Source of the DNA: a virus
Taxonomy: Duplodnaviria > Heunggongvirae > Uroviricota > Caudoviricetes
DNA: 64,000 bases
Virus record (IMG/VR): IMGVR_UViG_3300023210_000016
Reading direction: 5' to 3' (one strand)
The notes beneath the pieces were generated by a model. That model was not told the DNA's origin. It searched no databases and worked only from the letters and a program-made list of their open reading frames with translations. Position numbers and translations under genes: made by a program. This document shows, piece by piece, positions 293 to 63,155 of this stretch; within the stretch, counting starts at the first letter, position 1; each line of letters opens with the position of its first letter.

Positions 293-1195
293 TCATGGCC
301 GTTGTTTATACGCGGTCATATCGAACCAATTAGGACAACGGTCCTGCTCGCATAACATTGGCAATGCTGGTAACCGATTGGCTAGATTCTCTAATATGTT
401 GGGGTCGGAGATATTACATATTGGCTGTCCTTGGCCGCAATGTGATCTGCGAATGTGTCCAGCATAATCAATGACTAATGTGTCAAGACCAGCATAACAG
501 ATGTATCCCTTGTATGTATTTCTCTTCTCTGATCGAATCTTGTCTACGTGTTCATTTTCGTTGGTGTCCGACGTGGGTAGGTTATTTTCGGTGGTGCCAT
601 ACGCGATTTGTAATTGTTCAGGAGTATAATCCATTAAAACCTGATTGAATGGCATGTCTTTGTATAACAATTGATATGTTATTTGGATTTCGTGCTCTTG
701 AAATTCTTCGTCCCATCTGGTTTTTAACTCTGTCGCGGTTTCAAAATTTTCGGGGGTTGTGGCTATGGTAAGATGAAGATCGCGGTCTTTAAGAAGATCA
801 ATCTTCTCTTCGAGTTCCTCGATATCTACGAAATCCAAATGAACACTTATATTGACGGTGTTTAATGTGTTGGCGTTTTGCTCCCACCAGTCCAGATTTG
901 GTGATCCATTTGTGAGCAATGATGTTTTACAGTTCCTGTTATGAAGCATTCTCAATACCGACTGAAAGTTCGGGATCACCGTTGGTTCGCCGCCAGTGAA
1001 TTGTATCTCCACGGTTTTGCCCAGAGGTTCGTAATGATCAATGAATACTTCACAGATATCTTTGATGGTTTCTGCATCAGGTGGCATTTTTTTGTTCAGA
1101 TTTAGTCTACAATACGAACAACTGTAATTGCATACATCTCCAACTGTCCAAGCTATTCGAACGGTATCGGTTAGCTTAGTATTAATTTCATGCAT
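293..1195 (-). CDS. Radical SAM enzyme, 300 aa
   Basis: CxxxCxxC motif 'CNYSCSYC' followed by 'FTGGEPT' glycine-rich SAM-binding motif; typical radical-SAM core. Confidence 0.75.
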   Translation of the reverse strand: MHEINTKLTDTVRIAWTVGDVCNYSCSYCRLNLNKKMPPDAETIKDICEVFIDHYEPLGKTVEIQFTGGEPTVIPNFQSVLRMLHNRNCKTSLLTNGSPNLDWWEQNANTLNTVNISVHLDFVDIEELEEKIDLLKDRDLHLTIATTPENFETATELKTRWDEEFQEHEIQITYQLLYKDMPFNQVLMDYTPEQLQIAYGTTENNLPTSDTNENEHVDKIRSEKRNTYKGYICYAGLDTLVIDYAGHIRRSHCGQGQPICNISDPNILENLANRLPALPMLCEQDRCPNWFDMTAYKQRP

Positions 1196-1196
1196 A

Positions 1197-2606
1197 TTAG
1201 AACGAAGCCATTAGTGATCGTCGCCAAATAGCGGTTGAACCATCGTACACGCCTGTACAAATATAAATGTACGCGGAATCATATGCGAACATGCCCGGAA
1301 GATCACCAGAAACGCCAACACCTGCGGGCGTTTGAGGGGTTACCACGCGAAAATTATCACCGGCAACTTCGAAGTTCGAGCTTACACTTACTACTCCGGT
1401 TCCATTTGCATCTAATATCAAATTCTCATTGGTGATTGTCGCCCGAACTTGGTTATCAATAAGTTCGACACGTTGATTACTGATATTTCCTTCTACTTCC
1501 AGAACGTATGTATTGGATGGGCCGGTGCCGGAATTGCCTATGATAACATTTCCTAAACCATTAAGTCGAAATCCTTCAACAACATTTAATCCAGCATCTC
1601 GGTACGTTAAACGCAACAACATGGAATTGCCAGTTTCTCTCCACAGAGACATGCCAGAGCCAAGACCATTTTGATCGGCAGAGTAAAACGCACCAACGGT
1701 TTCATCGTTCGCAGCATCAGTGTGGGTGGTTTGTACCCACCCATTGTCGGCACCACCCACGTTCAATACTGGTCCAACAATACCCAATTGAGAATAATCA
1801 CCATTGGTATTACCAACGCTCATATCACCCGCAGCATTGAAACGCATAACTTCAGCAGTATTGGATGTAAAACTCAGAATATTACCATTATGGTCATATT
1901 TGATTTCACCCAAAGTAGCGGAGTTGGCGTCAGTCCATGCAATTGATCCAAATCCGGAGGTCGTATTCAAAAATGTTAATTGTGCCTGTAATGACCCTTC
2001 GATAATAATACCCTTGGCCTGTTGTGCGGTGACGGCGGTTACGGCAGAGCTTGCATTGGTTACGTGTAGATTTGCTAATGGTGTAGCTTGCGTGATACCG
2101 ACCTGTCCGGTCGCATCCATTTTCATGAATTCAGTAGCCACTGTACCAAATGCCAATGTGGAAGAAGCCCCCCGAACGATCAATGATGCTTTACCCGCAT
2201 CGTCAACCGCCACAGATAATCCATCGGTATCGGTTGTGCTGAAGGTATCATTGCCAATAATCAATCCCCAAGGGGTTTGGTCATCTGCAGTAATTTTAAC
2301 CAACATACTAGCGGTGCTGGCGTTATCTTCTACTTCTAATCTTGCCACGGGAGTTGAGGTGCTTATTCCGAGATTGCCACTGGTAATGATCACATCGCCT
2401 GTTCCATTTGGATCAAGAATGATCTGTCCATTGGTGTCATCACTTATTATACTGTTCCCGGTGAGGGATAAATTACTCAAAGAAGCACCACCTAATTCGG
2501 TGTATACTTCCGTGAAGTTATCATTGATTTTTATCATCGAAGTTCTTATAGGATCACCCGTCCCGTCATTGGCGCTACTGCCTACATCTACTACCTGCTG
2601 TGTCAT
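1197..2606 (-). CDS. Tail fibre protein, 469 aa, Gly/Thr/Ser-rich
   Basis: N-terminus 'DPIRTSMIKINDNFTEVY' resembles the conserved tail-fibre N-terminal motif; low-complexity G/T/S-rich beta-rich body. Confidence 0.6.
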   Translation of the reverse strand: MTQQVVDVGSSANDGTGDPIRTSMIKINDNFTEVYTELGGASLSNLSLTGNSIISDDTNGQIILDPNGTGDVIITSGNLGISTSTPVARLEVEDNASTASMLVKITADDQTPWGLIIGNDTFSTTDTDGLSVAVDDAGKASLIVRGASSTLAFGTVATEFMKMDATGQVGITQATPLANLHVTNASSAVTAVTAQQAKGIIIEGSLQAQLTFLNTTSGFGSIAWTDANSATLGEIKYDHNGNILSFTSNTAEVMRFNAAGDMSVGNTNGDYSQLGIVGPVLNVGGADNGWVQTTHTDAANDETVGAFYSADQNGLGSGMSLWRETGNSMLLRLTYRDAGLNVVEGFRLNGLGNVIIGNSGTGPSNTYVLEVEGNISNQRVELIDNQVRATITNENLILDANGTGVVSVSSNFEVAGDNFRVVTPQTPAGVGVSGDLPGMFAYDSAYIYICTGVYDGSTAIWRRSLMASF

Positions 2607-2690: not shown

Positions 2691-3365
2691 ATGTATATAC
2701 GAGATGTACAAATCGAAAATACCGTTAAAGTGACTCGTGGTGACTGCACGTTCCACAGAAAAAACAAAGCGTATCATGCCCTTTACGAATGTGATGTATG
2801 TGGCATTGAGTTTACTAGAAAAGGGAAGTTCAGAAACAATATGGGATCATCGCACAATTATGAAGAAAGATGTAAAATGAATTCATATTGCAGTAAATGT
2901 TATCATCCGGCAATCACTCATGAGAATTCAGTTAAATCTCGACTTTCAAAACGCATCCTTGGGGAACAAAAAACTGACAAAGATGGCTATGTTCATAGAT
3001 TTGTTGGTCCGGATTGGCCCTATCAAAAAACATGGAATAAGCAAAATAGAAACTGGATACGTGAGCATATATATGTAATGTCCAATCATCTGGCGCGAAT
3101 GTTGTTATGCGGCGAACAGATACATCACATAGACGGTGATAAGAAAAACAACGATATCGATAATTTGGTATTATTATCGGCCAGCGAACATAAAATCGCA
3201 CACGATTCATATGAATTGGTTGGTCGCAATCTGTGTAAAATGGGTCATATTAGATTTGATCGAGGGGCAAACACCTATGTAATAAGCGAAGACCTGATGC
3301 GACAATTATCAGGAACAATAGACGCATCAAGTAATATGACCACAGACATGTCTATCACTATTTAA
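2691..3365 (+). CDS. HNH homing endonuclease, 224 aa
   Basis: Motif 'HHIDGDKKNNDIDNLVLLSASEHKIAH' (HNH); N-terminal CxxC zinc-finger-like pairs. Confidence 0.8.
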   Translation: MYIRDVQIENTVKVTRGDCTFHRKNKAYHALYECDVCGIEFTRKGKFRNNMGSSHNYEERCKMNSYCSKCYHPAITHENSVKSRLSKRILGEQKTDKDGYVHRFVGPDWPYQKTWNKQNRNWIREHIYVMSNHLARMLLCGEQIHHIDGDKKNNDIDNLVLLSASEHKIAHDSYELVGRNLCKMGHIRFDRGANTYVISEDLMRQLSGTIDASSNMTTDMSITI

Positions 3366-3409: not shown

Positions 3410-4483
3410 ATGTCCTTTTTAAAGAGCGTTGCAGTTATCCTGATTAGTGTGTTTTTTGTTACCTCGACAGATGCCCACCATATCAATTTAGCTGATCTAG
3501 TGCAGACGGTGGAGAAGAGCATCGTAATTGTACAAGCTGTTCCGAACGAACAACCAAAACCAATAAAAAACAGCAACCCTTTTAGTCAATACGGACAACC
3601 CCCTGCCAAAAAACCCGATCCTGCACAAAAAGATCAACCAACTAAGTCCGGAACAGGGTTTGTGGTTGAAGGTGGAATCATTGTAACAAACGCTCATGTG
3701 GTTGAAGATTCCAAGTTTGCATACGTGTTATTCAAGAACCAAATGAAACGCCACAAAGTGATAATCAAACATCTCGATAGAAAAGCTGATATCGCCGTTC
3801 TCGTACCCGAAAATAATCAATTATTAGTCAGCATCGCCCCATTATCATTTAGTACTGACCTCTTACGATCAGGTCAGTCGGTGTTTGCTATCGGTCATCC
3901 ACTAGGATTCAAATACACGGTATCTACCGGCATTATCAGTAGCCCAAGTGTTCATTTGCCACAAGATACCAATCCGTTCCGCAGATTCGTACAAACCGAC
4001 ACAAGCATCAATCAAGGAAATTCTGGTGGCCCTTTGATGAACCATAGAGGCGAAGTTGTTGGCGTGAACACAATCATTATTTCACCCGGCAGAGTAGGAT
4101 CAATTGGATTGGGTTTCAGTCTAAGAGGTGATTATGTTCAGCGTGTGTTGAACCATTTTCGTAACTTTGGTGAGATCAAACGTCCGCGCATTGGCATTAA
4201 GTTAGGCTATAACCAAGAAAAAGAACGCCTATATGTTATGGAAATACAACCAAACTCACCTGCATCAAGTAGTGGGATATTGGTCGGAGACCTGATATTG
4301 AAGATCAATGCTGACGAGATAACCCTCATGGAACATATCTTCAATGCATTAGAACAACTGATGCCAAATGATGATATGAGAGTGCAAGTTAGCCGTGATG
4401 GTGTTATCACGACATATTCAGTGATCTTGGGTGATCTACGAGAATTTGAAAAGAAAGAAGCTCTAAAACTTAAAGTACGTTGA
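3410..4483 (+). CDS. HtrA/DegP-like trypsin-family serine protease with C-terminal PDZ domain, 357 aa; N-terminal signal peptide
   Basis: Catalytic motifs 'TNAHVV' (His), 'DIAVL' (Asp) and 'GNSGGPL' (Ser); hydrophobic N-terminus; RBS AGGAG 7 nt upstream. Confidence 0.85.
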   Translation: MSFLKSVAVILISVFFVTSTDAHHINLADLVQTVEKSIVIVQAVPNEQPKPIKNSNPFSQYGQPPAKKPDPAQKDQPTKSGTGFVVEGGIIVTNAHVVEDSKFAYVLFKNQMKRHKVIIKHLDRKADIAVLVPENNQLLVSIAPLSFSTDLLRSGQSVFAIGHPLGFKYTVSTGIISSPSVHLPQDTNPFRRFVQTDTSINQGNSGGPLMNHRGEVVGVNTIIISPGRVGSIGLGFSLRGDYVQRVLNHFRNFGEIKRPRIGIKLGYNQEKERLYVMEIQPNSPASSSGILVGDLILKINADEITLMEHIFNALEQLMPNDDMRVQVSRDGVITTYSVILGDLREFEKKEALKLKVR

Positions 4484-5063
4484 AGCTTTCTGCGAATTCA
4501 TAGAGATTGGTTTCGCGATTGAACGTTATCAATCCAGCCTTGACCATTTCGAATATAAGCTTTTCTGATTTCGCATGACAGTTGTTGTGTTCCTGTACTG
4601 TCATTGTTACTAAATTTTCTAGTTTGTTGTTTTTCTTGTCACCATCTATGTGATGAACAACTTCGCCTTTAGCCATGCTTCTGCCTAAATGTGATTCCAT
4701 GACATACGTATGCTGTCTAGCCCAATATCTGCCACCACCGTTACGAGTAATAAAGTTGTCGTCCAAACCTACGAATACAACATTATATTGGTCCCATGTT
4801 TCCCTCACTTCGCCAATTTCATATCTTTCTAGAATTTTCTTCGCACGATGCGCGGCCAACATCTTAGCTGCCGCCGATGCTCCGCAATCATTGCATACGT
4901 GATTATAATCGTCAGATAATCTGACCGGATCAACCGTGCCTTTTGCTCTGCAAAAAAATGCACTGCAACTATCACATGTGAAGTTGTGCCATGTTTTCTC
5001 TCGGAAATAGCTTCCGGATTTACGAGTAAATTCTGTCTTATTGAGGGTGTCGTTAATATACAT
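4470..5063 (-). CDS. HNH homing endonuclease, 197 aa; paralogue of 2691..3365
   Basis: Motif 'HHIDGDKKNNKLENLV...QEHNNCH'; N-terminal Cys pairs 'CDSCSAFFC', 'CNDC'. Confidence 0.8.
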   Translation of the reverse strand: MYINDTLNKTEFTRKSGSYFREKTWHNFTCDSCSAFFCRAKGTVDPVRLSDDYNHVCNDCGASAAAKMLAAHRAKKILERYEIGEVRETWDQYNVVFVGLDDNFITRNGGGRYWARQHTYVMESHLGRSMAKGEVVHHIDGDKKNNKLENLVTMTVQEHNNCHAKSEKLIFEMVKAGLITFNRETNLYEFAESFNVL

Positions 5064-5136: not shown

Positions 5137-5466
5137 TTAGCCGAAAGCCACGCTCTCGCCACAACCACATGAGCTGGTGGAATTAGGATTCACCACCGTT
5201 AGCATTGAACCCATAATATCTGTTTTGTAATCAATTGTAGAACCGATTAAATACATGATTGCAATTACGTCAACTGCAAACACATAATCTGTGTCACGCA
5301 ATTCAATAATTTCCTCGTCTTTAAGTTCATCTTTCTTAATGACATCCCATTCGTATGAGAACCCAGCACAGCCACCACCACGAACACTTAATCTAACCGC
5401 ATCCATGTCATGGGTGCTGCATATTTCAATAAGATGATCTCTTGCGGAGTCTGTTAGTGTAATCAT
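5137..5466 (-). CDS. iscA: IscA/HesB-family Fe-S cluster insertion protein, 109 aa
   Basis: '[11 protein letters not shown]' and C-terminal '[12 protein letters not shown]' match the IscA/ErpA signature cysteines. Confidence 0.85.
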
Positions 5467-5684
5467 TTTTTATGACGGAATGTAATCCGACCTTTCGATA
5501 AATCGTATGGGGTCATTTCGACCGAGACGCTATCACCTACCACTACATTGATACGATGCATGCGCATCTTACCATTCAAGTGTGCTAGTATTTCGTGTTC
5601 GTTCTCTAACAACACGCGGAAGGTGGAATTCGGACATACCTCTAATATCTCACCTTCAAATTCAAGTAATTGCTCTTTCGCCAT
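5463..5684 (-). CDS. infA: Translation initiation factor IF-1, 73 aa
   Basis: Near full-length similarity to bacterial IF-1: 'MAKE...FRV.LEN.H...AH..GKMR......[17 protein letters not shown]'. Confidence 0.9.
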
Positions 5685-5735
5685 TATGGGGTGACGCCGC
5701 CCTGTAACTTAATCTTTTTCTTTAACATATATTAT

Positions 5736-6604: not shown

Positions 6605-6633
6605 TTGACTTTATAACGACCATCATATATAAT
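6605..6633 (+). promoter_or_regulatory. sigma70 consensus promoter TTGACT-N17-TATAAT driving 6677..8218
   Basis: Read directly: ttgact(6605-6610)...tataat(6628-6633). Confidence 0.6.
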
Positions 6634-6676
6634 TAACAACATCGAGTCAAGCTAAATATCTCGTATAGGAGAGATA

Positions 6677-8218
6677 ATGTTAATAGATGCTACCGGTCAA
6701 AAAGTGATCAATTTACCAAGCATAATCATATCATTTTCGTCGTTTGAACAGAGCGGGGTTGACCTGATAATAATGCTCAATGGGGAAAAAATTATTGTCG
6801 AACAGTATTTTCTGCAAAACCCATTGCCTATCATTCAAGTCGATGGTGCAAATATATACCCCGTGGATACTATTGACAATCATGTCGGTACTGTGGTATA
6901 TGTTACAGGTGACGTAGTGGTAAAGACAGATGATATATCATGGCGTTTAGTGAAAGTAGGCGATAAGCTTTATCAGGATGAAGTGATTATCACCCCCGGC
7001 GATGGTATCGTGAAGATAGCGTTAGATCATGGTTCGTTTATCGAATTGAAACAAGGGCAAAGACTGGTACTGGATGAAGTTATCTTCGACCAAGAAATAC
7101 CACCGATGCCGGGAATGCAATTAGATGTGAGCCAATTCAGTATGCCAGATTTATACGGATTGCATGTATCGATTGATCCAATAATGAAATACATTGATCC
7201 AGATAACGACCATTATGATCCAGATAAGTATTATGAACTCAGACTACAAAGGGATGAAGAACGTGCATCAGATGGACCTGCCACTGAAGTGGTCGATGGC
7301 GAATTTCCACCAAAGTTTAGCTTCGTCTCTGAAGCCAGTGGAAATACCGGAATACTTACAACCAGAGATACCGCCACCGGACCTATTGGCAATTTCACAA
7401 GCATTGAGCTGGATTCGGGACAGGAATTGGCCACCCCAACTGGAGATGAAATTGGAACGACCGTTGGATCGGAGACAACGCAAACCGTCAACGATGTACC
7501 TGACACAAATCCAGTACCAATTCCAGAAGAGCCAGTAGATGATAGTACCGACACCGGATTGGCGGAACACACCGACGACGGATCAACTGGAACTGGAGTT
7601 TCCACGCCTGATCCAGATTGCAACGATGACGCTGGACCCGCAACTGATCCAACCCCTGACACAAGTCCAGTACCAGTTCCTACCCCCGAACCCACCGCAG
7701 TCGTAACTGTTTCAACTGTTACAGAAACATTTGTTACATCTTCTGAACCAACAATAACTACGGTTTGGATTCGTGACACAATCGCAGACGAACTGATCGA
7801 CAACAAACACCCCGATATTGACAACGGCGGCGAAGGTCACGATAAACATAGTGATCTTGTTCGGACAACGTTCAGTCATTTCGTGGATGAGTCAGTTATC
7901 GAAATCACCACGACGGTTGTAGAAACTACCACAACCACAACCGTGATAGGTGATCAGGCCCCGACTATTATTGTCGAGGGGCCAACGGTAATCAATGAGT
8001 CAGTGACTTCTGAAACTTCTGCCAGTTCTCGCACAGAGACAACAAATATCGAATTCATTGATGACCATGATAATGGCCACGGCAACGAAGATGATCATAA
8101 CGATAATTCTAATTCGGGCAAAGGCAAGGGTAAAAAAGATCATGACGAAGATGAGCAAGAAGGGTACACGTTGACGCCACCACATGATACTCCGCACGAT
8201 CCCGAGATCATTCAGTAA
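6677..8218 (+). CDS. Thr/Pro/Asp-rich low-complexity protein, 513 aa, with internal repeats (DTNPVPIPE/DTSPVPVPT); possible surface or structural protein
   Basis: Long ORF behind a consensus promoter; globular N-terminal ~140 aa then T/P/D/E-rich region. Confidence 0.55.
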   Translation: MLIDATGQKVINLPSIIISFSSFEQSGVDLIIMLNGEKIIVEQYFLQNPLPIIQVDGANIYPVDTIDNHVGTVVYVTGDVVVKTDDISWRLVKVGDKLYQDEVIITPGDGIVKIALDHGSFIELKQGQRLVLDEVIFDQEIPPMPGMQLDVSQFSMPDLYGLHVSIDPIMKYIDPDNDHYDPDKYYELRLQRDEERASDGPATEVVDGEFPPKFSFVSEASGNTGILTTRDTATGPIGNFTSIELDSGQELATPTGDEIGTTVGSETTQTVNDVPDTNPVPIPEEPVDDSTDTGLAEHTDDGSTGTGVSTPDPDCNDDAGPATDPTPDTSPVPVPTPEPTAVVTVSTVTETFVTSSEPTITTVWIRDTIADELIDNKHPDIDNGGEGHDKHSDLVRTTFSHFVDESVIEITTTVVETTTTTTVIGDQAPTIIVEGPTVINESVTSETSASSRTETTNIEFIDDHDNGHGNEDDHNDNSNSGKGKGKKDHDEDEQEGYTLTPPHDTPHDPEIIQ

Positions 8219-8219
8219 G

Positions 8220-8676
8220 TTATTGCGGCACGACCATCATGGTTAGTGTTCCAAAATATGAGCCAGCCGGTGCACTTGCGAGATCGCTCCCCTGTATGCG
8301 CACTTCTATTGTGGCCGTACCTGATCTGCAAAACGGCAATTTTCTACCCATCGCTTTTCCGGTAAGATTATGAATAGCAGTTCCTGTAGACAATTGCACT
8401 AAATTTCCTTGTCTGCTTTCTTTATACCAAACTTGAAAAGGTATATCGGCAGGTCCACTAGATACAACAAAGGCACCGGCAGCACCAGACCCTGTTACTG
8501 TTATACTATAAATTTTGTTGGTGGCGGCAACACAATGCACCGACTCACTGATTATTTCAGCAGCCCCCCAGCCATGTACCAAGATTGATATCGTCTATGT
8601 CTTGGATAATTGCATCTGCTGCGTATACAGGGAATGCATACAACATAAGAGCAAGTGCAAGAAATAGCTTTTTCAT
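8220..8676 (-). pseudogene. SCPU-domain (spore-coat-U/Csu-pilin-like) secreted protein split by a frameshift at a G6 (C6 on + strand) tract at 8564..8569
   Basis: 40-aa ORF from ATG 8676 encodes signal peptide 'MKKLFLALALMLYAFPVYAA' plus 'DIDDINLGTW' and stops just after the homopolymer. The TTG-start 120-aa ORF (8220..8582) continues in another frame with the SCPU C-terminus 'GSYFGTLTMMVVPQ'. Removing one G restores a ~152-aa protein collinear with the paralogue 8680..9213. Confidence 0.55.
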
Positions 8677-8679
8677 GGG

Positions 8680-9237
8680 TTATTCAGCGGCAACCAATAA
8701 TGTTAATGTTCCCGTAAAGGTGCCCACTGGTGCAGAGGCAAGGGAACTTTCGGTAACATCGATGCCAAGAGTAGCCGTTAATGCCGAACCACCATTACAG
8801 TTAGTGCTTGTAGCAGATGATGTTTGTCCCGCTAATGCTGAACCAGAAGTCAATGATGTTCCACTAGAAGAACCAGCAACATCATCCCACTTAACGGTGT
8901 AAGGAACCGTGTTAGTTCCGTCTGTCATTTCAAATGCACCGCCCGTTCCACTGCCACTAGCTGTGATAGAATAGCCGGTATTACTTGTCCAAATACAAAC
9001 ATCATCGGTTGATGATAGTGGGCCTGTTCCGGTCCATGTGCCGAAAGCAATATCGTCTATCGCTGTAATTCGAGCCAATGCTGGCACGGTAACGGAGATA
9101 GTACTAGTGCCTGATGATGTTGCGCCCACGTTTCCTTGGGATGCCGCAAATGCTTGAGCATTAATGATTGTTGCAATTGACCCTGCAACAAGGGCTGTTC
9201 TGATAAAAGTCATCGTAGTTCCTGTTATTCTTATCAT
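8680..9237 (-). CDS. SCPU-domain secreted protein, 185 aa in track; probable true start at Met9, 9213
   Basis: Signal peptide 'MTFIRTALVAGSIATIINAQAFAA'; N-terminal 'ITAIDDIAFGTW' and C-terminal 'PVGTFTGTLTLLVAAE' resemble the spore-coat-U/Csu pilin domain; RBS AGGAAC before the second Met. Confidence 0.6.
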   Translation of the reverse strand: MIRITGTTMTFIRTALVAGSIATIINAQAFAASQGNVGATSSGTSTISVTVPALARITAIDDIAFGTWTGTGPLSSTDDVCIWTSNTGYSITASGSGTGGAFEMTDGTNTVPYTVKWDDVAGSSSGTSLTSGSALAGQTSSATSTNCNGGSALTATLGIDVTESSLASAPVGTFTGTLTLLVAAE

Positions 9238-9263: not shown

Positions 9264-9293
9264 AGATATAATAAGCTAGAACTACTCTAAAGG

Positions 9294-9372
9294 TACTAGG
9301 GGCCGGAATCGAACCGACTCGCCTTGCGGATGCCGTTATGAGCGGCAGGACTCCCCATTTGTCTTCCCTAGC
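9294..9372 (-). tRNA. tRNA, anticodon CAU (Met or Ile2-like), 79 nt, atypical 12-nt variable region and 3-bp D-stem; no encoded CCA
   Basis: Manual fold: acceptor GCTAGGG/CCCTAGT, anticodon stem TGCCG/CGGCA with loop CTCATAA, T-arm GTCGG-TTCGATT-CCGGC. Confidence 0.55.
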
Positions 9373-9543: not shown

Positions 9544-9972
9544 TTAGAATCTGCCACGTTTTTTCCAATACCTCAACCATTTAGGAAATGATTTCGCTGC
9601 CGGTGCCATATCTAGATTGTACTCGGCGCGTTTGATGCGTGTTTCTATTCGCTCCATAGCTTTTCCCAATGGTGATTTGTCGTACCGAAACTGTCGCGGT
9701 AGCTTGGGTACGGAAACAGTTTCTCCCGTGAATTCAGCCATGCTTTGATGACCTTTGGAAGAGTTACATGGAACACACGCGACAACAGTGTTGTCATCAC
9801 GATGGTAACGTCCAGTATCTTTCAATGGAATGATATGATCAACTGTTGCCGTTTTGTAATCAAGTTTGCACTCACAGTAGTAGCATTTAAACCTTTGCTC
9901 CCGAAGCTTCCGGTCCCGATTCAGGCGATAGAAAGCTTTTTCTGTGCGTGATCTGAGTTTAACGTGCCCCAT
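9544..9972 (-). CDS. HNH endonuclease, 142 aa
   Basis: 'CYYCECKLDYKTATVDHIIPLKDTGRYHRDDNTVVACVPCNSSKG' (C-x2-C...H...N...H/C-x2-C). Confidence 0.75.
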   Translation of the reverse strand: MGHVKLRSRTEKAFYRLNRDRKLREQRFKCYYCECKLDYKTATVDHIIPLKDTGRYHRDDNTVVACVPCNSSKGHQSMAEFTGETVSVPKLPRQFRYDKSPLGKAMERIETRIKRAEYNLDMAPAAKSFPKWLRYWKKRGRF

Positions 9973-12539: not shown

Positions 12540-14171
12540 TTACAACTGAATTTCTGACCAGTCTACAGAATACAAGAACAGCCCTGTGCCTGTCTCAATA
12601 ACTTGAATACTTATCGACAAGGTTTGTTGTGTAGTGTTATCGCCTTCTAAAATGAACTGCGCAATGTTAAATAATTCGTTGCTGACGTTGTCGGTTAATA
12701 CGTTATAATCAGAGACAGCACTAGCCGAACCAATTCTCGACCAGATTATCTCACCACCACTTACTGCGGTCGCCGTAGTATCCACTTCCACCGCTGAGTT
12801 TGTGGTATCGTGTGGGGCAAAAACTGCGCCAGTCAATACGGATGGGTCTCTGCGAATTCTAATAACATATTGGAAAGCTGCATTGTTGCCGATGCTAAGT
12901 CCAACAAGATTGCTGATAACAGAGTTTCTAATGCCCTGATATGTCGTAGCCGCTCTCAGACTCATAATTGGCTTTTCGCCATCTGTATCCGCGATGCTTT
13001 TTCTTGCAGCGACCACTGCGGTGTGACGTGTTGTGTTTCTAGAAATATTACCCAGAGCTTTTACGGTAGCACAAGCAAAACGCATTTGGCTATTGCCCGA
13101 TGCAATGCCAGTGTTAGTTACTTCCAATCTGATTGGCAATGTGCCTGTGCGCATGTAAACTTGTGTCAGGTTGTTAGCATTTTCAAACGTGTGGCCAACT
13201 CTCTTCTCGCCCCATTCAGTAATCATGCCCATTCGTACCTTACCAGCACCTAACCATTGATAATCAAACCACATGAGATTCATGTTTAATGGGTTCCATG
13301 TAAATGGTCGCGTTGAAGAACCGTCTAATTTATTATCTGAGAAATCTGCTTGCGCAACTCTTGTATCTACTGCCGAAGAACCGTCTGCTGCACTACTACG
13401 AATTACTGCGTACAGTGTTGTTCCATCTAGTTCAAAGAATATTCCATTGTCATCATCGAAATAACCCCAACGACGACGAACGTTTGCTTTGCCGACATCA
13501 CCCATGACAATAGTCATTTCGATCAAGTTACCTGTTCCGGGTTGATACGGATGATACAAATGTGATTGTCTTACCGCACTAGCACCAGAGCCGGTGCCGC
13601 CGGTATCCAATAAAACAGAAGATTCGTTTTGAAGATATGTAATAGAACCTGTTCCTGCAGTGACATCGTACCATGCTTCTGGGTGTTCGGTGTATGTGTG
13701 GCTGTGATCGGAAATTGTGTTTTGTTCTGCAGAAAGCAAATCACCAAACGGACTGAACAATGGCGTACCGTCTTTGAATGTTATCTTCTGCGCACCATCA
13801 GCATCTAGTCGCTGTCTGAATTCTGGATTGTCTGGGTCAGTTAATACCATCAATTGGTATTCAGCATCGATCTGACTCGTGGACAGTGGAACGTTTGCTA
13901 CGCCCTTAGTGACAGCAGATACCTGCAGGTTTTCGTCGTTTGTGAAGGTTCCCGTGACTGTTTTCAGATACAATTCACCATCCGTTCCGGGTGTAAACCC
14001 AGTAACATTGATGGCAGTAACCGTACCTGTTGCAGAAGAGGAAACGCCCGTAACGACATCGCCAATTGCGAAACCGCCGTTTGTTTCGTTATCAAACGGT
14101 ACTAACGATCTGGCAACGGACCCGATTTTCTTACCAGTACTATCTGGTGGGACTCTCACGAATGATGGCAT
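12540..14171 (-). CDS. Large structural protein, 543 aa (tail/baseplate)
   Basis: Long ORF in the structural block; G/T/S-rich. Confidence 0.5.
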   Translation of the reverse strand: MPSFVRVPPDSTGKKIGSVARSLVPFDNETNGGFAIGDVVTGVSSSATGTVTAINVTGFTPGTDGELYLKTVTGTFTNDENLQVSAVTKGVANVPLSTSQIDAEYQLMVLTDPDNPEFRQRLDADGAQKITFKDGTPLFSPFGDLLSAEQNTISDHSHTYTEHPEAWYDVTAGTGSITYLQNESSVLLDTGGTGSGASAVRQSHLYHPYQPGTGNLIEMTIVMGDVGKANVRRRWGYFDDDNGIFFELDGTTLYAVIRSSAADGSSAVDTRVAQADFSDNKLDGSSTRPFTWNPLNMNLMWFDYQWLGAGKVRMGMITEWGEKRVGHTFENANNLTQVYMRTGTLPIRLEVTNTGIASGNSQMRFACATVKALGNISRNTTRHTAVVAARKSIADTDGEKPIMSLRAATTYQGIRNSVISNLVGLSIGNNAAFQYVIRIRRDPSVLTGAVFAPHDTTNSAVEVDTTATAVSGGEIIWSRIGSASAVSDYNVLTDNVSNELFNIAQFILEGDNTTQQTLSISIQVIETGTGLFLYSVDWSEIQL

Positions 14172-19818: not shown

Positions 19819-21561
19819 TTATACAATCGGAGGAAAAGTGTCTGCTGGGCTATCCACATTCGGTGTTTTCAAAATATCCAATATTTTACGATTTAGAACA
19901 GGTTTTTCTTGCAATCCTTCTCTTAGTGGACCCAGATGTTTGTCGTATTTCTTCCAGAAATCCAATGCAGATCGATACAATGGCTTGCGGACTTGAAACA
20001 AACTGGCTGTCCAGACTGCTCGGTCGGTATTATAGTAGTTCTTTAACTCATCTTCCCAATCAAGGTCCAAGAAATCTAGAACCCGATGAACTTGGTTGTC
20101 AAAATCATCTACCATATCTTCATACTGCAATGACAGGATAGACTCGGGATATAATCGTTCCCAGTGTTCCATCAATGGCTCGTACACTTGGCGATAATAC
20201 TTCCCTACTTCATACAGATCGTATGTGTAATGCCATGTGTCTTCTGATGCCCAGACTTGTTGGAAATTAGAAAAACAACATGCCATTGGGTCACGCTTAC
20301 AATGAATGAATTTGGTGTTCGGCAACATCGACTTGATCAAACCAAGATAGTAATAATTGCTTGGTGTCTTGTCGATCATGTAAGTCTTTTCAGGCCACCG
20401 TTTGGCCAGCGAGTTATCGTATTGTTGTCCTAGTATTCTGAACCTATTTGGAGATACTTGGTTCATTGTATATGGGTGCGGCTGTGGGGGTTCAATGCCT
20501 TGCATGGCAATCTCGCCTTTTAGATCATTCAGAAAATCATTGATGTTGTTCAATTCTCCTTCAGAATGTACCTTTGTATGGGTTGCTAATGCCTGATCAA
20601 TCAGGGTTGTGCCTGATCGTGGCATGCCAATAATATACAACGGCATCGTTTGCTCGTCGCCATGAGGTGGTTGACGCTCTACGAATTCTGGGGTGAATAC
20701 TTCTTTGATGTTGAATTGATATTGCAGTACGTTCTCGAATTTATATCCGTTGTCTTTCATATCTTCGTGGATTTGCTTGTTACCAGCTTCCAGATATTCG
20801 AAGGCGTCATCGATCTCGTCAAACTGTTGATATATTTGTGATATAGCAATATTGATTCGCCCGAAATCGTAGTTCGATTGTGGTGGGCCAGACAACTTAC
20901 TCAACATATCATCAATGAATGCTTTTCCATCTTCTAGGGTATCAAACTTTTTGAATTGGATGAGTGATCGCCACGTTGGGATATGGTCCGGTCGAAATTC
21001 GAGACCTTTTTCCAGATCAAAGATTCCTTGCTCGACGTTACCTGCACTAACATGACAAATTCCTCTGTTGTGCCACGAAAAGAACAATTCGGGATCACGT
21101 TCTAGTGCGAAATCGAATGCTTTGATTGCCTGATCGAGTTGGTTCAATGCTTTGAATGCACCGCCAAGTTCATTGAAATACACAGCGTTGGTATCATCAA
21201 TACGAATTGCATTCAGGAATTGCTCAACCGCTAGGTCCATGTGTCCAGAACTAAAGAACATGAAACCAAGATCGTAATAATATTCGGGATTGTCGGGGTC
21301 GATCTCAACTGCGCCCTTCATTGCCAGTGCTGCGAGTTTGAACTCACCTGCGTGAAAGGCTATCTTGGAAATACCCTTGAATGCAAGAGGTTGTTGAAGG
21401 TCACGTTGTAATACCTCTTTGAGCAACTTCTCTGCTTCTTCGTATTCTTTGGTTTCTACTAGTTCTAACCCGTGTTTGAGTTTTCGTTCGGTTATTACTT
21501 TGTATTCTTTCTTGGCTTGGCGTTCTTGATCTTTCTCTTTAGATTTCTTTGATTTTGCCAT
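19819..21561 (-). CDS. TPR-repeat protein fused to a sulfotransferase domain, 580 aa
   Basis: N-terminal TPR-like repeats (YYYDLGFMFF...AIK); C-terminal 'GMPRSGTTL' 5'-PSB sulfotransferase motif. Confidence 0.6.
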   Translation of the reverse strand: MAKSKKSKEKDQERQAKKEYKVITERKLKHGLELVETKEYEEAEKLLKEVLQRDLQQPLAFKGISKIAFHAGEFKLAALAMKGAVEIDPDNPEYYYDLGFMFFSSGHMDLAVEQFLNAIRIDDTNAVYFNELGGAFKALNQLDQAIKAFDFALERDPELFFSWHNRGICHVSAGNVEQGIFDLEKGLEFRPDHIPTWRSLIQFKKFDTLEDGKAFIDDMLSKLSGPPQSNYDFGRINIAISQIYQQFDEIDDAFEYLEAGNKQIHEDMKDNGYKFENVLQYQFNIKEVFTPEFVERQPPHGDEQTMPLYIIGMPRSGTTLIDQALATHTKVHSEGELNNINDFLNDLKGEIAMQGIEPPQPHPYTMNQVSPNRFRILGQQYDNSLAKRWPEKTYMIDKTPSNYYYLGLIKSMLPNTKFIHCKRDPMACCFSNFQQVWASEDTWHYTYDLYEVGKYYRQVYEPLMEHWERLYPESILSLQYEDMVDDFDNQVHRVLDFLDLDWEDELKNYYNTDRAVWTASLFQVRKPLYRSALDFWKKYDKHLGPLREGLQEKPVLNRKILDILKTPNVDSPADTFPPIV

Positions 21562-31286: not shown

Positions 31287-32711
31287 TTACTGTTTGCGTG
31301 GTAAGGTTGCCGGTGCGGTAACTGGAGAACTTACCGTTTTGGCACCCATCTTGTCGAGCATACCCAATGTTGCTAGGATATCCATGGAGTTTGGCAGTGC
31401 ACTCTGCGATCCGCCGCCCATAACTACACTATCAGGCATTTCGATCTGGAAGCCGGGGAGTGCCCGATACATTGCGATGCTAACATCCTTCTGCAATTCA
31501 GCCATATAGATGTCACGTGCTGATTGCTTCGCTTGGAGTTTTGCTTTGTCAACTTGTGCTTCGGCAAGACCTTTAGCTAGGATAGCTTGTGCTTCGAACT
31601 TCGCAGCTTGAGCGTTGGCGTCTTGAATGCCAAGGTTAGCTTTTGAAACTGCCAGTACCTTCTCGCGTTCAACAACCGCTACATCTTTTTTACGGTTCTG
31701 GATAACCAGTTCACGCAATGCGATTTGTTGTTCAACTGCAACCAGCTTTTGATTATCGATAACAGCCAATTCTTTTTCGCGCAGTTTGATCTGAATCTGC
31801 TTGGCTTTTTCGATTTCTTGGCGTTGGGTTTCAGCTTTAGCTTCTGCCTTTGCCGTTTCAATCGTCTGGATGGCGTTGATCCGCTTTGCGACTAGTGCCC
31901 GTTTTGTATTCAAAAGATCGTTCAGGCGTTTGCCGGGATTTGGCTTATCAACTGTAACTTGTGACAACACGATGCCATACTGAGCTAGCGGATTATCTAA
32001 TCGTTTCGCTTGGCCCTTGTCATCCGTCAAAACAATATTCTTCCAGACCCGTTGTTGCTGCTGTTCAAGCTTGTTGCCATTTTGTTGTTCACTTGATACT
32101 GGCGCTAGACCGGTGGTTTCAACAACAACTTGGCGACGTTCGGTTTGATACAGACCATTAGCTAGCTGATCTTCAAGCTGAACTTTGAACTCATTCAATC
32201 CGCCTTGGTAGAACTCTTCACCAGTGTACTGTGTTGCAGTAACAACGGTAACGTTCTTCGCATTCTTCACCAACAACGCATCAACGAGGTTTTCGAAGCT
32301 ACGGAATTCTTTGTGAAGTGCGATGATTTCTTGTTCGCCGCGTGGTAATCGGAAACGGAATGTCGCCGGAATATCACCACCATAGGTGTCTGCGAAGGTC
32401 ACGGGCGTGTCTTCTAGTGTCCGTGTGAACTTGCCGCCATCAGGTGTACTGTCCAGCGAAATAGTTGCCACTTGCTTGTAAGGGTATACCTTCGTGAAAA
32501 ACGGTACCTTACCATGGATGCCAACGTCGGACACTCCACTTTCTGTGCCAAACAGACTGTCTTGCACAAAATAGCTATATCCGGAATCGGCTGTCCAGAA
32601 ACTGTTCAGGCCCACGATTAGTGCGGCACCGCCGATGACTACGTATTTGACTTTCGATTTTAGTCCATCGATTGCCTGTACGACTTTATCTTCTCTCGAT
32701 TGATTATCCAT
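31287..32711 (-). CDS. SPFH/band-7 (flotillin/HflK-like) membrane protein, 474 aa
   Basis: N-terminal TM helix, then a globular domain, then a long AEAKAE.../QxxLxxA coiled coil typical of the SPFH family. Confidence 0.45.
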   Translation of the reverse strand: MDNQSREDKVVQAIDGLKSKVKYVVIGGAALIVGLNSFWTADSGYSYFVQDSLFGTESGVSDVGIHGKVPFFTKVYPYKQVATISLDSTPDGGKFTRTLEDTPVTFADTYGGDIPATFRFRLPRGEQEIIALHKEFRSFENLVDALLVKNAKNVTVVTATQYTGEEFYQGGLNEFKVQLEDQLANGLYQTERRQVVVETTGLAPVSSEQQNGNKLEQQQQRVWKNIVLTDDKGQAKRLDNPLAQYGIVLSQVTVDKPNPGKRLNDLLNTKRALVAKRINAIQTIETAKAEAKAETQRQEIEKAKQIQIKLREKELAVIDNQKLVAVEQQIALRELVIQNRKKDVAVVEREKVLAVSKANLGIQDANAQAAKFEAQAILAKGLAEAQVDKAKLQAKQSARDIYMAELQKDVSIAMYRALPGFQIEMPDSVVMGGGSQSALPNSMDILATLGMLDKMGAKTVSSPVTAPATLPRKQ

Positions 32712-32973: not shown

Positions 32974-33366
32974 TTAGTTTTCATCCGCGCAAGCACACTT
33001 CACTTCATAATCATGAATAGCTGCTTTGATCGCATCTTCCGCTAACACCGAACAGTGAATTTTCACAGGTGGCAATGCCAACTCTTCTGCAATCTGTGTG
33101 TTTTTAATATCACCAGCTTCTGCAAGAGTTTTACCTTTTACCCATTCTGTGACCAAACTAGATGAAGCAATAGCTGACCCGCAACCAAATGTTTTGAACT
33201 TCGCATCTTGAATGATACCGTCCTGAACTTCGATTTGGAGTTTCATCACATCACCACAAGCCGGACTCCCCACTAATCCGGTTCCTACCGTAATTGAGTC
33301 TTTGTCCATAGCGCCAATGTTGCGCAGGTTCTCGTAATGATCTAATAGTTTGTCTGAGTATGCCAT
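32974..33366 (-). CDS. iscU: Fe-S cluster assembly scaffold IscU, 130 aa
   Basis: Near-identity to IscU signature segments: 'GSPACGDVMKLQI', 'FKTFGCGSAIASSSLVTEWVKGK', 'LPPVKIHCSVLAEDAIKAAI'. Confidence 0.95.
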   Translation of the reverse strand: MAYSDKLLDHYENLRNIGAMDKDSITVGTGLVGSPACGDVMKLQIEVQDGIIQDAKFKTFGCGSAIASSSLVTEWVKGKTLAEAGDIKNTQIAEELALPPVKIHCSVLAEDAIKAAIHDYEVKCACADEN

Positions 33367-33732: not shown

Positions 33733-33928
33733 CAGTGTTCTCCAAGAGTCTAGTAACTTTACTTATCTGTTTAGCTACTCGTTTCATGGTTTGGACCGAT
33801 ATTTTGTCATGATTCTCTTGGCGTTCGATATCGTGTATCGCACCCTGAAGGTTCAAATACGCATCATGTTCGTTGCCGACACCCAATGCGTCTTTAATGT
33901 TGGCTCTGAGGTCACATAGCTCACACAC
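33719..33928 (-). CDS. Hypothetical protein, 69 aa
   Basis: ORF. Confidence 0.35.
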   Translation of the reverse strand: MCELCDLRANIKDALGVGNEHDAYLNLQGAIHDIERQENHDKISVQTMKRVAKQISKVTRLLENTDVEL

Positions 33929-34769
33929 GAGTAGCAGCCCTCATTCCTCGGGTTTGGCCACATGCAGCCCCGATATTGGAACCATCTGTCATGTGATATT
34001 CAACAGATACGCCACGCTCACGTAGATGCATTACGAATGCACCAATATCAGCATCTGATGCAGATTCGAGCTTACTGCGGATGATCGGATTGAACTGACT
34101 GATTTTGATATGCTCATTCGGGAATGTATCGGCTATTTCCTCGGCATCAGCAATACTATCATTGACGCCCTTGAGCAATGCGAAATTCAATTCAACTGGT
34201 CGATCTTCGAACTCGGTGATCATGTGATATTCATGAATAGCTTGTGCTATATCATCAATAGGTTTGGCGAGTGGGATCAACCATTCGCGTACATCGGGGT
34301 CCATCGAGTGGATCGATACCTGCAGCTTGAATGGTACTGAGAATTTCTCACGTGCCAAATCCACAATACGATCAGTTGCCACACCAGATGTTGAGACAGA
34401 AATCCGACAGTTCTCATGTTGCTCTAGATGGCGCATGGTGCCTAAAACATTTTTGTAATTCAGCAATGGTTCGCCTTCGCCCATAAAGCTGAACAATACG
34501 ACTTTTCCGTCTTCGGCATCGGTCGAATGTCTAGACATCATTGAATAGATTTGGTTCAGCATTTCGCCAGTGGTCAAGTTCACGGTTGTTTTCTCGGCAT
34601 CAGGAGATGCGCAAAAAGCACACCCAACGGCACAATTTAATTGTGTTGAGAAACATACAACTTGTTTTTCTGGTCGATTGAAATAGATTGCTTCGGCGTG
34701 GTTGCCGTTGAAAACCTCGATCAGGTCTTTTTGTACTTGGGCTTCGCCCATCGGTATTTGATCCATCAT
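33921..34769 (-). CDS. RlmN/Cfr-family radical SAM methyltransferase (N-terminally short), 282 aa
   Basis: 'LNCAVGCAFCAS' (Cx3Cx2C in the RlmN context), 'FMGEGEPLLN', 'VSTSGV' match RlmN blocks. Confidence 0.75.
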   Translation of the reverse strand: MMDQIPMGEAQVQKDLIEVFNGNHAEAIYFNRPEKQVVCFSTQLNCAVGCAFCASPDAEKTTVNLTTGEMLNQIYSMMSRHSTDAEDGKVVLFSFMGEGEPLLNYKNVLGTMRHLEQHENCRISVSTSGVATDRIVDLAREKFSVPFKLQVSIHSMDPDVREWLIPLAKPIDDIAQAIHEYHMITEFEDRPVELNFALLKGVNDSIADAEEIADTFPNEHIKISQFNPIIRSKLESASDADIGAFVMHLRERGVSVEYHMTDGSNIGAACGQTRGMRAATRV

Positions 34770-38269: not shown

Positions 38270-38361
38270 TACCCCCGCCGAGACTCGAACTCGGAACGCT
38301 CTCTAATCTGGAGACTGTGCTGATTATAAATCAGGGGTTTTACCAATTAAACTACGGGGGC
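38270..38361 (-). tRNA. Atypical tRNA, 92 nt: anticodon loop TTTATAA (UAU, Ile-AUA-like), long 24-nt variable arm with its own stem-loop; no CCA
   Basis: Acceptor GCCCCCG/CGGGGGT (G1-U72), D-arm GTTT-AATTGGTA-AAAC, anticodon stem CTGA/TCAG, T-arm CCGAG-TTCGAGT-CTCGG. Confidence 0.5.
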
Positions 38362-43053: not shown

Positions 43054-43446
43054 TTAATCAACATCCGCGCCCATGTTCCCTAGGTATTCCCGAAATGTTT
43101 CCAGACCTTCGCGGGTTTGATACTTATTAGATAGCATGGTAATGTCGATAGTGCAGGGGCCTTTGGCCAAGGCCATGGCATCCTTTAGTCCAAGGTTAGT
43201 GAACTGTCGAATGGTCTTTACAACAGAAACTTGTTTGCCTTCGCGCCATCCGTGATACTGAATACTGGACGAGTAATTTGCCATCGTGCCGAACAAGATA
43301 TCACCAGCAACATCGTCACCCATGGCTTCGCGCATGGAATCCCATACAGCCATACCTTTTTCTTTGCCGTAATGCTTCTGGAGTTCCTGCAAGAATCGCA
43401 TGCCCTGTATAACAATACCGGACGAAGTTACTGGTTTATAAGTCAT
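43054..43446 (-). CDS. Ribosomal protein L7/L12 C-terminal-domain-like protein, 130 aa
   Basis: 'QVSVVKTIRQFTNLGLKDAMALAKG...LGNMGADVD' parallels the L7/L12 CTD '[25 protein letters not shown]...LEEAGAEVEV'. Confidence 0.45.
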   Translation of the reverse strand: MTYKPVTSSGIVIQGMRFLQELQKHYGKEKGMAVWDSMREAMGDDVAGDILFGTMANYSSSIQYHGWREGKQVSVVKTIRQFTNLGLKDAMALAKGPCTIDITMLSNKYQTREGLETFREYLGNMGADVD

Positions 43447-56189: not shown

Positions 56190-56789
56190 TTAGGTTATAC
56201 GGAATTTCTCATCATGGTTTTTCTTACCCAGCATTAACTTGATAGTGACTTCGCTATCCGGCAGAAACCCTTTTTTGATGTACTTTTTGATACGCCGCTC
56301 GACATTATCCCATCCATGATCGGCGATGGACTTATTCACGTCGATGAAATGTAATGTACCTGTTTCCAAATCGGCAATTGCTTCCGGAGTATGAATAACC
56401 TGCTTCCCATCGGTGGCGAATTGACATACCGTGATATCGAAACTATTGATACAATCAATTGCGGTTTCCTCTGAACGGAAGCCAACACAATTCAATACGT
56501 ATCCAATATAATTCAACCAGCACAGTGCGCCGTGGCCATAATCATTGCCTTGTCGTTGCTGATGGTTGTCGGTTGCGCCGCAATCATACAGGGTTTGCTT
56601 GAATTCTTGGTATTGCGCTTTGTTGGCGAAGTAGATGTCCACATCATTCGCATTCAAGAAGTTACCATCCTGATGGAAGTTCAATGCGGCACCGCCAGCG
56701 ATCCATGGCCCGTTGTTCAGGTCCATCAATGGGAGCAAGTTGGTGATGTTGTATGGCTTATGTGATAGATTCATCATCGTCTTCATCAT
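56190..56789 (-). CDS. Pol-beta-superfamily nucleotidyltransferase; head-domain motifs resemble tRNA CCA-adding/poly(A) polymerase, 199 aa
   Basis: 'IAGGAALNFHQDGNFLNANDVDIYF' (GG...DxD) and 'INSFDITVCQFA' (cf. RDFTINA). Confidence 0.4.
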   Translation of the reverse strand: MMKTMMNLSHKPYNITNLLPLMDLNNGPWIAGGAALNFHQDGNFLNANDVDIYFANKAQYQEFKQTLYDCGATDNHQQRQGNDYGHGALCWLNYIGYVLNCVGFRSEETAIDCINSFDITVCQFATDGKQVIHTPEAIADLETGTLHFIDVNKSIADHGWDNVERRIKKYIKKGFLPDSEVTIKLMLGKKNHDEKFRIT

Positions 56790-62729: not shown

Positions 62730-63155
62730 CTATACATCTTCTTCCCTTTGCTTTACGCCTAAACGCGCATTCACCATTTGTTCAAACTCTTTGTCTAAAT
62801 CACTGTATTGGATTGTTTCACCACTTGCATGATCTTTGACAATGTTACGAGGCTCATGATAGGTTCGAATGGTTTCATCAGATTCGTAACGTTTACGCGA
62901 CTCTTTTTGATTATACAGGTTTACTACCCGATGTGCAAGTTTTGTGAACGCCTCTTTTTGATTACGGGATCGTTCACGGAAATTCTGACCGGTTTCCATC
63001 ATGCCAGATTCGATATGGGTGATCCTGCAACAGTTCTGATGTTTGTTGCGATGCTGCCCACCTGCGCCGGTACCACTGAACCAATCGATCTTGAAATCTT
63101 TCTTGGTGAACGATAGATGCGGTATTCGCTCTAAGTGCATGTTAGTTTTGACCAT
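62730..63155 (-). CDS. ArfB/class-I release-factor-like GGQ-domain peptidyl-tRNA hydrolase, 141 aa
   Basis: 'SGTGAGGQHRNKHQNCCRITHIESGMMETGQNFRERSRNQKEA' matches the RF GGQ domain (SG.GGQ.VNK....R..H.P.G..V.CQ..RSQ..N). Confidence 0.75.
   Translation of the reverse strand: MVKTNMHLERIPHLSFTKKDFKIDWFSGTGAGGQHRNKHQNCCRITHIESGMMETGQNFRERSRNQKEAFTKLAHRVVNLYNQKESRKRYESDETIRTYHEPRNIVKDHASGETIQYSDLDKEFEQMVNARLGVKQREEDV

Follow-up and report, generated by a model that had tools for sequence, protein, structure and literature searches.

Can a phage encode a genuine translation initiation factor 1 (IF-1), and, if so, what might such a protein do to the ribosome of its host? The question is raised by a stretch of 64,000 nucleotides from the tailed-phage record IMGVR_UViG_3300023210_000016 (Caudoviricetes), which at its full length is called the window below. 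A preliminary description, made from the sequence alone, had taken a 73-codon minus-strand open reading frame (ORF) in it for infA, the gene of IF-1. We find that this ORF encodes a true IF-1, that the gene belongs to the phage, and that it departs from its bacterial counterparts at one residue of the ribosome-binding surface. The coordinates of the features are collected in Table 1.

The first comparison was made at the level of protein families. The infA equivalog hidden Markov model (HMM) TIGR00008 scored 104.8 bits against a cutoff of 61.15, with model positions 1-69 of 69 aligned without gaps. PF01176, the profile by which the preliminary description had proposed to check the gene, gave 80.4 bits (gathering score 30.2), and phrog_30201 gave 98.3 bits (E = 3.5e-28) and covered residues 1-72. 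A phmmer search of the PDB returned IF-1 chains only, with E-values from 5.6e-25 to 2.7e-15; the window IF-1 aligns gap-free over residues 1-72 to the 72-aa IF-1 chains and is a single domain with no extensions. Judged by sequence, the IF-1 match is far beyond chance. No S1 or CSD family match to the protein was found, only RsgA_N, the 21 bits of which fall short of the cutoff of 27.

The second comparison concerned the fold. An AlphaFold2 model made from 32 sequences (mean predicted local distance difference test score, pLDDT, 90.7) has strands at residues 7-17, 21-26, 31-36, 52-58 and 61-71 and a helix at 38-42, which is the expected five-stranded barrel of the oligonucleotide/oligosaccharide-binding (OB) fold. 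Foldseek superimposed the model on E. coli IF1 in the 30S complexes 9h9h_X and 9fco_I with template-modelling (TM) scores of 0.92-0.96 and a root-mean-square deviation of 0.8 Å over 70 residues; eIF1A, aIF1A and RsgA were only distant matches. The eukaryotic and archaeal factors eIF1A/aIF1A have the same OB core in the small-subunit A site (TM about 0.8), but their identity to the window IF-1 is 15-26%, TIGR00523 gives only 16 bits, and their extra helical and tail segments are absent from it.

The contacts between IF1 and the 30S subunit are described in the papers on the Thermus IF1-30S structure. There helix 44 is contacted by Pro18, Arg23, Arg41 (at A1492) and Arg46 (at A1493), four residues given as conserved in all three domains of life; Lys2, Gly38 and Lys39 reach the 530 loop, Tyr60 and Asp61 reach uS12, and Arg64 and Arg69 are also listed. 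The window IF-1 keeps K3 (= Lys2), P18, R23, G38, K39, R41, M42, Y60, D61, K64 (= Arg64), R66 and R70 (= Arg69). The sole listed contact to have changed is Arg46, which is Asn46 here. It is the equivalog-level HMM score, the collinearity, the retention of 11 of the 12 known 30S-contact residues and the predicted fold that identify the product as IF-1, so the original assignment holds. The protein is not the case that would have spoken against it, a generic S1-like OB fold devoid of IF-1-specific residues. Compared with bacterial IF-1 (InfA), the protein has the same length, collinearity, OB fold and all 30S-contact residues but one; it differs in being phage-encoded and acidic, in having Asn46 for the near-invariant Arg46, and in being coupled in an operon to IscA.

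Is the gene really carried by a phage? Bacterial DNA mis-assembled or mis-binned as a phage contig would also yield such a record, and many 'viral' IF-1 matches, at contig ends or from unverified records, do look host-derived (L012-L017; Acinetobacter phage MD-2021a, in which erpA is present too). In our case, infA is placed 5.4 kb from the edge of the window and flanked on either side by phage genes, in a bona fide phage genome that has genes for a virion structural protein, a baseplate wedge, three HNH proteins, tRNAs, Apyc1 and Gad2. The window is mostly a single long minus-strand gene array of uniform GC content (40-47%). T4-like cyanomyophages have counterparts of the virion structural protein with 31-34% identity, and more matches to it come from Puniceispirillum and Sulfitobacter phages. 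In ENA, JGI and Logan assemblies, 14 metagenome contigs encode the identical IF-1 with its neighbours unchanged. These contigs were gathered by exact-protein lookup, so that the identity of their IF-1 proteins follows from the selection itself, and relatives at greater distance were saturated for an estimate of dN/dS; at the DNA level they are 99.8-100% identical to the window, and the infA ORF is intact in all of them. The recurrence of the same junctions across independent assemblies makes mis-assembly or bacterial contamination very unlikely, and no near-identical bacterial gene was found; an artefact is extremely improbable. When 25 kb was compared by megablast with 50,697 phage records, no close cultured relative appeared, only a tRNA match of 87%. 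A pattern search of IMG/VR and the JGI metagenome collection did not recover the phage either; its sole viral match, L034, was rejected as a chance match.

How common, then, are phage IF-1 genes? They had been called very rare, and among deposited genomes this is right: tblastn against the same 50,697 records gave a match in 36, some of them dubious. The credible cases are the Lak megaphages, two uncultured phages of 484-595 kb, Sinorhizobium phage Phosso (469 kb, with the gene annotated as IF-1) and Bacteroides DAC phages. Several of the other deposited matches are unverified fragments, and in some assemblies the presence of erpA alongside IF-1 suggests bacterial DNA. The claim does not extend further, since an alignment-based scan of IMG/VR gave at least 579 stretches encoding IF-1 relatives, the proteins have a PHROG family of their own, and IF1 (and IF3) in huge phages has been published, with interception of host translation proposed (Al-Shayeb et al. 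2020, PMC7162821). The finding of phage IF1 was repeated in a soil study of 2025. Phage IF-1 is a known kind of protein, uncommon but not extraordinary.

The IF1s of huge and jumbo phages (those of Al-Shayeb et al., Lak, Phosso, LR756508, LR756511, DAC and PHROG 30201) are likewise single-domain proteins encoded beside other translation genes, but they are only 44-55% identical to the window IF-1. The window comes from a T4-like marine phage with a cyanomyophage-type virion, and this phage may not be 'huge': the longest contig with this IF-1 has 103,015 bp, against a threshold of > 200 kb. Its IF-1 also falls in a sub-lineage marked by an IF-1-IscA cassette. Another gene neighbourhood was seen on viral contigs L019-L033 (e.g. 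L022 10001-13796, L020 10001-13342, L028 249-4242) and L057 (2874-4219), where a ClpA-like ATPase of about 740 aa (phrog_4871, E-values as low as 9e-260) is encoded 1-2 kb downstream of IF-1, and in phage Phosso a Clp-family ATPase lies two genes before IF-1. This arrangement recalls the clpA-infA neighbourhood of E. coli.

If the docking surface is otherwise kept, we can ask: How unusual is the replacement at position 46? In three comparison samples, bacterial or bacteria-dominated, Arg is nearly universal. The 109 nearest clusters have R in 104, K in 4 and N in 1; 150 representatives at 50% identity have R in 146, K in 4 and N in none; and for 80 species genomes the counts are R 77, K 3 and N 0. 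The lone N, in cluster P0012, probably belongs to a related phage, because this sequence has L36, N37, V48, V49 and the 73-aa length in common with the window IF-1. The viral proteins are quite different. The best 80 loci among the IMG/VR stretches have R in 26, K in 25, N in 14, Q in 9, T in 5 and A in 1. With duplicates and ten host-like loci removed (L144 and L146-L148 at contig ends, the rest with host-type-like sequences), the 60 non-redundant viral IF-1s have R in 22%, K in 33%, N in 22%, Q in 13% and T in 8%, against R in 97% of 65 bacterial sequences. Fisher tests of viral against bacterial sequences gave p = 7e-20 for R versus non-R and p = 5e-11 for basic versus non-basic residues, both uncorrected for shared ancestry. 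In the same 60 viral proteins G38, Y60, D61, R66 and R70 are present in 100%, K/R39 and R/K41 in 100%, and P18 in 97%.

Two further phages with Asn46 are Phosso, a cultured phage of Sinorhizobium, and LR756508, of 484 kb; Arg46 was found in the metagenome-assembled genomes (MAGs) of Hyphomicrobiales and Rhizobiaceae. In a neighbour-joining tree the Asn46 sequences fall into at least three separate groups, which, with 72 columns, is weak evidence for convergence. Lys46 is only partly valid as a phage signature, since Bacteroidota-type IF-1 (P0137) shares it, and K46 in Lak and DAC phages may be no more than a reflection of the hosts. Replacement of Arg46 by Asn is compatible with essential IF-1 function and with membership in InfA, because one bacterial infA has Asn46 as well. 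It lies on the low-GC metagenome contig L050, in a secY-adk-map-infA-rpsM-rpsK-rpsD-rpoA-rplQ operon, and is the only infA visible there. It is a tentative idea, with the odds against it, that phage IF-1s form a functionally distinct 'viral-mode' class, in which lineages of separate descent have exchanged Arg46 for N, Q, T or A and retained the remaining ribosome contacts. Such a factor would sit in the A site but change helix 44 dynamics, and with them the kinetics of subunit joining or the stringency of start-site choice in infection. In the literature searched, the pattern of Arg46 replacement in phage IF-1s appeared to be new.

It is also necessary to consider where the gene came from. Among 6,101 homologues from a database of 5.8 billion proteins, the best non-self matches are 72-aa alphaproteobacterial IF-1s with 68-76% identity; the closest bacteria are Sneathiella, Rhodospirillales/Rhodospirillaceae, Rickettsiales and MarineAlpha3 MAGs, and the C-terminus GRITFRHK is common to the window IF-1 and alphaproteobacterial IF-1s. 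This relatedness suggests that the host is probably an aquatic or marine alphaproteobacterium. Among 109 near relatives, the window protein departs at the near-invariant columns L17C, K25L, T36L, S37N, K42M, R46N, L48V and K52S. The nearest bacterial IF-1s are much more similar to one another than to the window IF-1, the identity of which reaches 76% at most; this indicates that infA has, as far as the alignments tell, long resided in phages and is not a recent pickup. A neutral passenger, captured recently from the host and with no role in infection, would fit the mosaic character of the region, which is flanked by HNH endonuclease genes, and the small size of IF-1, which makes it easily transferred. 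The divergence from every bacterial IF-1, the intact ORF on all contigs, the conserved contact residues and the order IF-1, IscA, baseplate, kept in relatives with far less similar IF-1s, render this explanation highly improbable.

This gene order deserves separate discussion. Of the 80 viral loci, 13 have an IscA homologue at most 4 kb from IF-1, and in L157, L163, L182 and L204 it follows IF-1 directly. None of 80 bacterial infA loci has IscA within 3 kb (p = 1.4e-4, viral versus bacterial), and an inherited bacterial operon was rejected as the source of the pair on this ground. The order IF-1, IscA, baseplate-wedge-like gene, He_PIG-domain protein is the same as in the window in L018, L047/L053, L163, L170, L175, L182 and L203/L204, and in L182 even a DegP-like protease, 35% identical to the one in the window, lies on the opposite strand at the same place. 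The IF-1s of these loci are only 53-61% identical to the window IF-1. Since the order was kept while the proteins diverged so far, the cassette is an old, vertically kept block in a broad family of aquatic T4-like phages. The linkage of IF-1 and IscA looked new, not being described in the literature searched.

Later additions to the block can also be traced. The HNH gene that follows IscA in the window is absent between the IscA and baseplate genes in L018 and L047 and is an insertion relative to these related phages; the HNH genes as a whole, together with one radical SAM gene, are insertions that set the window phage apart. As related phages have no HNH genes at these positions, the region may be regarded as a hotspot for insertion of homing endonucleases. 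In L186, L206 and L212, an IscU-like gene, 75% identical to that at 32974-33366 of the window, lies beside IscA about 2 kb from IF-1. The window itself holds a set of iron-sulfur (Fe-S) genes: the IscA/ErpA-like gene, the gene of the IscU-like NifU_N protein at 32974-33366 (164 bits) and that of a NifU C-terminal domain protein at 60672-60986. The radical SAM enzymes encoded at 293-1195 and 33921-34769 would need Fe-S clusters.

Co-transcription of infA with IscA and two unknown ORFs had been assumed, and we consider it plausible. The TGA of infA and the ATG of the IscA gene overlap by 4 nt in a shared ATGA (5466-5463), the three upstream ORFs, none of a known family, overlap or almost touch each other, a sigma-70-like site faces the unit, and no minus-strand terminator was found between 6650 and 4300. 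The support consists of gene geometry and consensus matches. A site on the plus strand, at 6605-6633, stands back to back with the candidate promoter, which reads from 6650 to 6622. The unit would probably be expressed early or in the middle of infection. Several other candidate signals were rejected. A terminator-like hairpin at 5684-5707 lies on the plus strand only, folding of the region 5′ of infA is not significant (z = -0.35) and gives no leader structure or attenuator, and the T4-type late promoter motif TATAAATA occurs three times in the window, equal to chance expectation, and never near infA. The ribosome-binding sites of the phage are also not unusual, with a G-rich Shine-Dalgarno (SD) motif at -11 to -8 and ATG starts in 115 of 121 genes; an SD motif precedes 61% of the genes of this phage against 15% in controls. 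Upstream of infA, the 105-108-aa ORF matches no Pfam or NCBIfam family and is not conserved beside IF-1 in related loci.

How might the protein act? We favour, at a probability of roughly 60%, the reading that it is a functional IF-1, which would dock in the A site of the host 30S subunit and keep or raise initiation capacity in infection. The identity, the fold, the conserved docking surface and the long-term retention in phages are established, as are the cassette structure and the pattern at position 46; its binding, timing and benefit we infer. In this scheme, infA would be transcribed from the host-type (sigma-70-like) promoter in a small operon and be translationally coupled to the IscA-like gene. 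Its product would bind, like host IF-1, between helix 44, the 530 loop and uS12 of the host subunit, and the initiation capacity for phage mRNAs would thereby be kept or raised. With Asn46 in place of the Arg46 that grips A1493, helix 44 could be held less tightly, or the factor released faster, and subunit-joining kinetics or the stringency of initiation could shift in favour of the phage. IF1 must leave before bridges B2a and B7a fully form, and for this reason a weaker grip could speed maturation of the 70S ribosome or relax stringency. Any kinetic effect of Asn46 is one that we infer.

Some points weigh against this reading. Arg46 is among the most conserved residues of IF1 and contacts the flipped-out A1493 in the Thermus structure papers, and ribosome binding could be weaker, or different, with Asn46. 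The window IF-1 is unusually acidic (net charge -1, isoelectric point 6.4, against means of +2 and 8.9). The promoter at 6650-6622 is a consensus match only, and infA, like the IscA gene, has no Shine-Dalgarno-like motif. Functional tests of any phage IF-1, by expression, binding or complementation, were not found in the literature searched. A viral translation protein, moreover, need not be a simple supplement, because a viral bS21, once incorporated, made E. coli ribosomes inactive (PMC6375957). Phage bS21, known from pelagimyophage HTVC008M and others, is a near parallel to the window IF-1, as a small initiation-related 30S component from an alphaproteobacterial host in a T4-like marine phage; it is a different protein at a different ribosomal site, and its incorporation into ribosomes was shown experimentally. 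As for charge, its reduction is not a general trait of phage IF-1s and was rejected as such (viral mean +1.9, bacterial +1.7, p = 0.12).

The precedent of bS21 also fits the idea of an interfering IF-1, which would dock in the A site, fail in the rearrangement of helix 44, and slow or re-bias host initiation, with host shut-off or selection of phage mRNAs as the result. Specific loss of the A1493-contacting Arg46 with the uS12 and 530-loop contacts kept is what such a factor could look like, and, as release precedes bridges B2a/B7a, a changed grip would alter kinetics. The phage genes, however, have ordinary ATG starts and SD motifs, so that a biased factor would have no visible hallmark to go by, and the L050 bacterium retains Asn46 in its only visible infA. 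We therefore consider interference unlikely.

An OB-fold protein could also have been repurposed away from the ribosome. IF1 has activities of the RNA-chaperone and antitermination type, and the window protein might act on phage RNA in Csp-like melting or antitermination; the reduced positive charge, the loss of Arg46 and the possible origin of the samples from cold aquatic sites are in keeping with this. Yet the residues that serve only the ribosomal site (Y60 and D61, G38 and K39, R70) are invariant in the window IF-1 and in the 60 viral homologues, and the family searches returned neither CSD nor S1 but the sub-threshold RsgA_N. Such a chaperone is improbable, and a functional initiation factor in the A site is still the reading that we prefer.

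The preliminary description had seen infA as part of a deliberate remodelling of host ribosomes, together with RlmN-like, ArfB-like and L7/L12-like genes. The RlmN/Cfr-like gene is real, but truncated: it aligns to model positions 82-347 of 355, with the first ~80 positions missing, and its score is below the equivalog cutoff. The GGQ/RF-1 domain of the ArfB-sized protein is likewise present (GAGGQ motif). ArfB typically has a basic C-terminal tail, and here the C-terminus is acidic (...KQREEDV) and the ArfB equivalog gives 23 bits against a cutoff of 100, which leaves the domain assignment standing and the ArfB one not. The L7/L12-like ORF at 43054-43446 is sub-threshold (23.5 bits, gathering score 25.9, 30 of 67 positions of the C-terminal domain model) and can serve as a weak lead only. 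On the longer contig, genes for bS21 and HSP20 are found some 1.6-2.6 kb to the right of the window (L011 5495-5734 and 5993-6460; bS21 at about 2.3 kb), and a weak MotA_ExbB match lies just past its right end. The phage carries a cluster of translation-related genes, as reported for large phages; deliberate remodelling of ribosomes would be one interpretation of it. There are hints that the IF-1-IscA cassette may tie Fe-S delivery, e.g., to the RlmN/Cfr-like rRNA/tRNA methyltransferase, to the takeover of translation.

The remaining features of the window are of a more general kind. The Apyc1 and Gad2 matches suggest counter-defence genes. Divergent from the infA unit, a 513-aa Thr/Pro/Asp-rich protein is encoded at 6677-8218 (+), followed by secreted-looking proteins of 120 and 185 aa at 8220-8582 (-) and 8680-9237 (-), which belong to no Pfam family. 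Auxiliary genes code for a TPR + sulfotransferase protein (19819-21561), a Nol-like carbamoyltransferase (44995-46482; phrog_1601, E = 2.5e-95) and a Band_7 protein (31287-32711). ARAGORN identified three tRNAs in the window. The tRNA-Ile(TAT) at 38270-38361 (-) has 92 nt. The 'tRNA-Met' at 9292-9372 (-), of 81 nt, is 87% identical to the tRNA-Met of Ochrobactrum phage vB_OspM_OC and was not reported by Rfam at its gathering threshold; lacking the GGG/CCC anticodon stem and having a long variable arm, it was rejected as an initiator tRNA. A tRNA match of 155 nt at 59178-59332 (-) was given by Rfam only and missed by ARAGORN, and an insertion or intron in it is probable.

Table 1. Features of the window, and one bacterial infA gene used for comparison, with the evidence for each.
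Feature	Position	Strand	Evidence and remarks
Generic radical SAM protein	293-1195		
Baseplate-wedge-like protein	1197-2606		in the order IF-1, IscA, baseplate, as in related loci
HNH gene	2691-3365	+	one of three HNH genes within 7 kb around the IF-1 cassette
DegP/HtrA-like serine protease with PDZ domain	3410-4483	+	converges on cassette; 14-nt overlap with HNH gene
HNH homing-endonuclease gene	4470..5063	-	PF13392 44.3 bits, phrog_19902; 73 nt downstream of IscA
IscA/ErpA-like A-type Fe-S carrier gene, 109 aa	5137..5466	-	PF01521 49.8 bits; TIGR00049 84.5 bits, cutoff 58.8
infA-like gene, 73 aa, Asn46	5463..5684	-	ATG-to-TGA ORF; TIGR00008, PF01176, phrog_30201, AlphaFold2
Unknown ORF, 105-108 aa	5736..6062	-	ORF call, 105 aa as called on contigs; 51 nt upstream of infA
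Unknown ORF, 132 aa	6031..6429	-	no Pfam, NCBIfam or PHROG match; end overlaps start of next ORF
Small ORF, 53 aa	6429..6590	-	called as gene on contig L004; probable first gene of the minus-strand unit
Sigma-70-like promoter candidate	6622..6650	-	TTGACT-17-TATGAT, 10/12 consensus matches; faces infA unit
HNH gene	9544-9972	-	one of three HNH genes within 7 kb around the IF-1 cassette
Virion structural protein	12540-14171		phrog_1645, E = 1.4e-74
Truncated RlmN/Cfr-like radical SAM RNA methyltransferase	33921..34769	-	TIGR00048 153.7 bits, cutoff 290
Gad2	56190-56789		precomputed Pfam match (PF26128)
Apyc1 (anti-Pycsar, metallo-beta-lactamase fold)	57793-58554		precomputed Pfam match
RF-1/GGQ-domain protein, 141 aa, ArfB-sized	62730..63155	-	PF00472 66.4 bits
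ClpS adaptor gene	63577-63894		75 bits
Bacterial infA with Asn46 (contig L050)	2954-3193	-	low-GC metagenome contig

Of the three bacterial initiation factors, IF-1 is understood least. If neither pattern, that at position 46 or that of the cassette, were functional, the gene would be simply one more auxiliary translation gene in a large phage. Dozens of viral IF-1s nevertheless provide a natural experiment, in which the docking surface is kept and Arg46, a residue that bacteria almost never change, is replaced. If the pattern is adaptive, it would offer a single-residue handle on the way in which initiation kinetics and fidelity depend on the hold over helix 44 and A1493, and on how phages may bias the ribosomes of their hosts.

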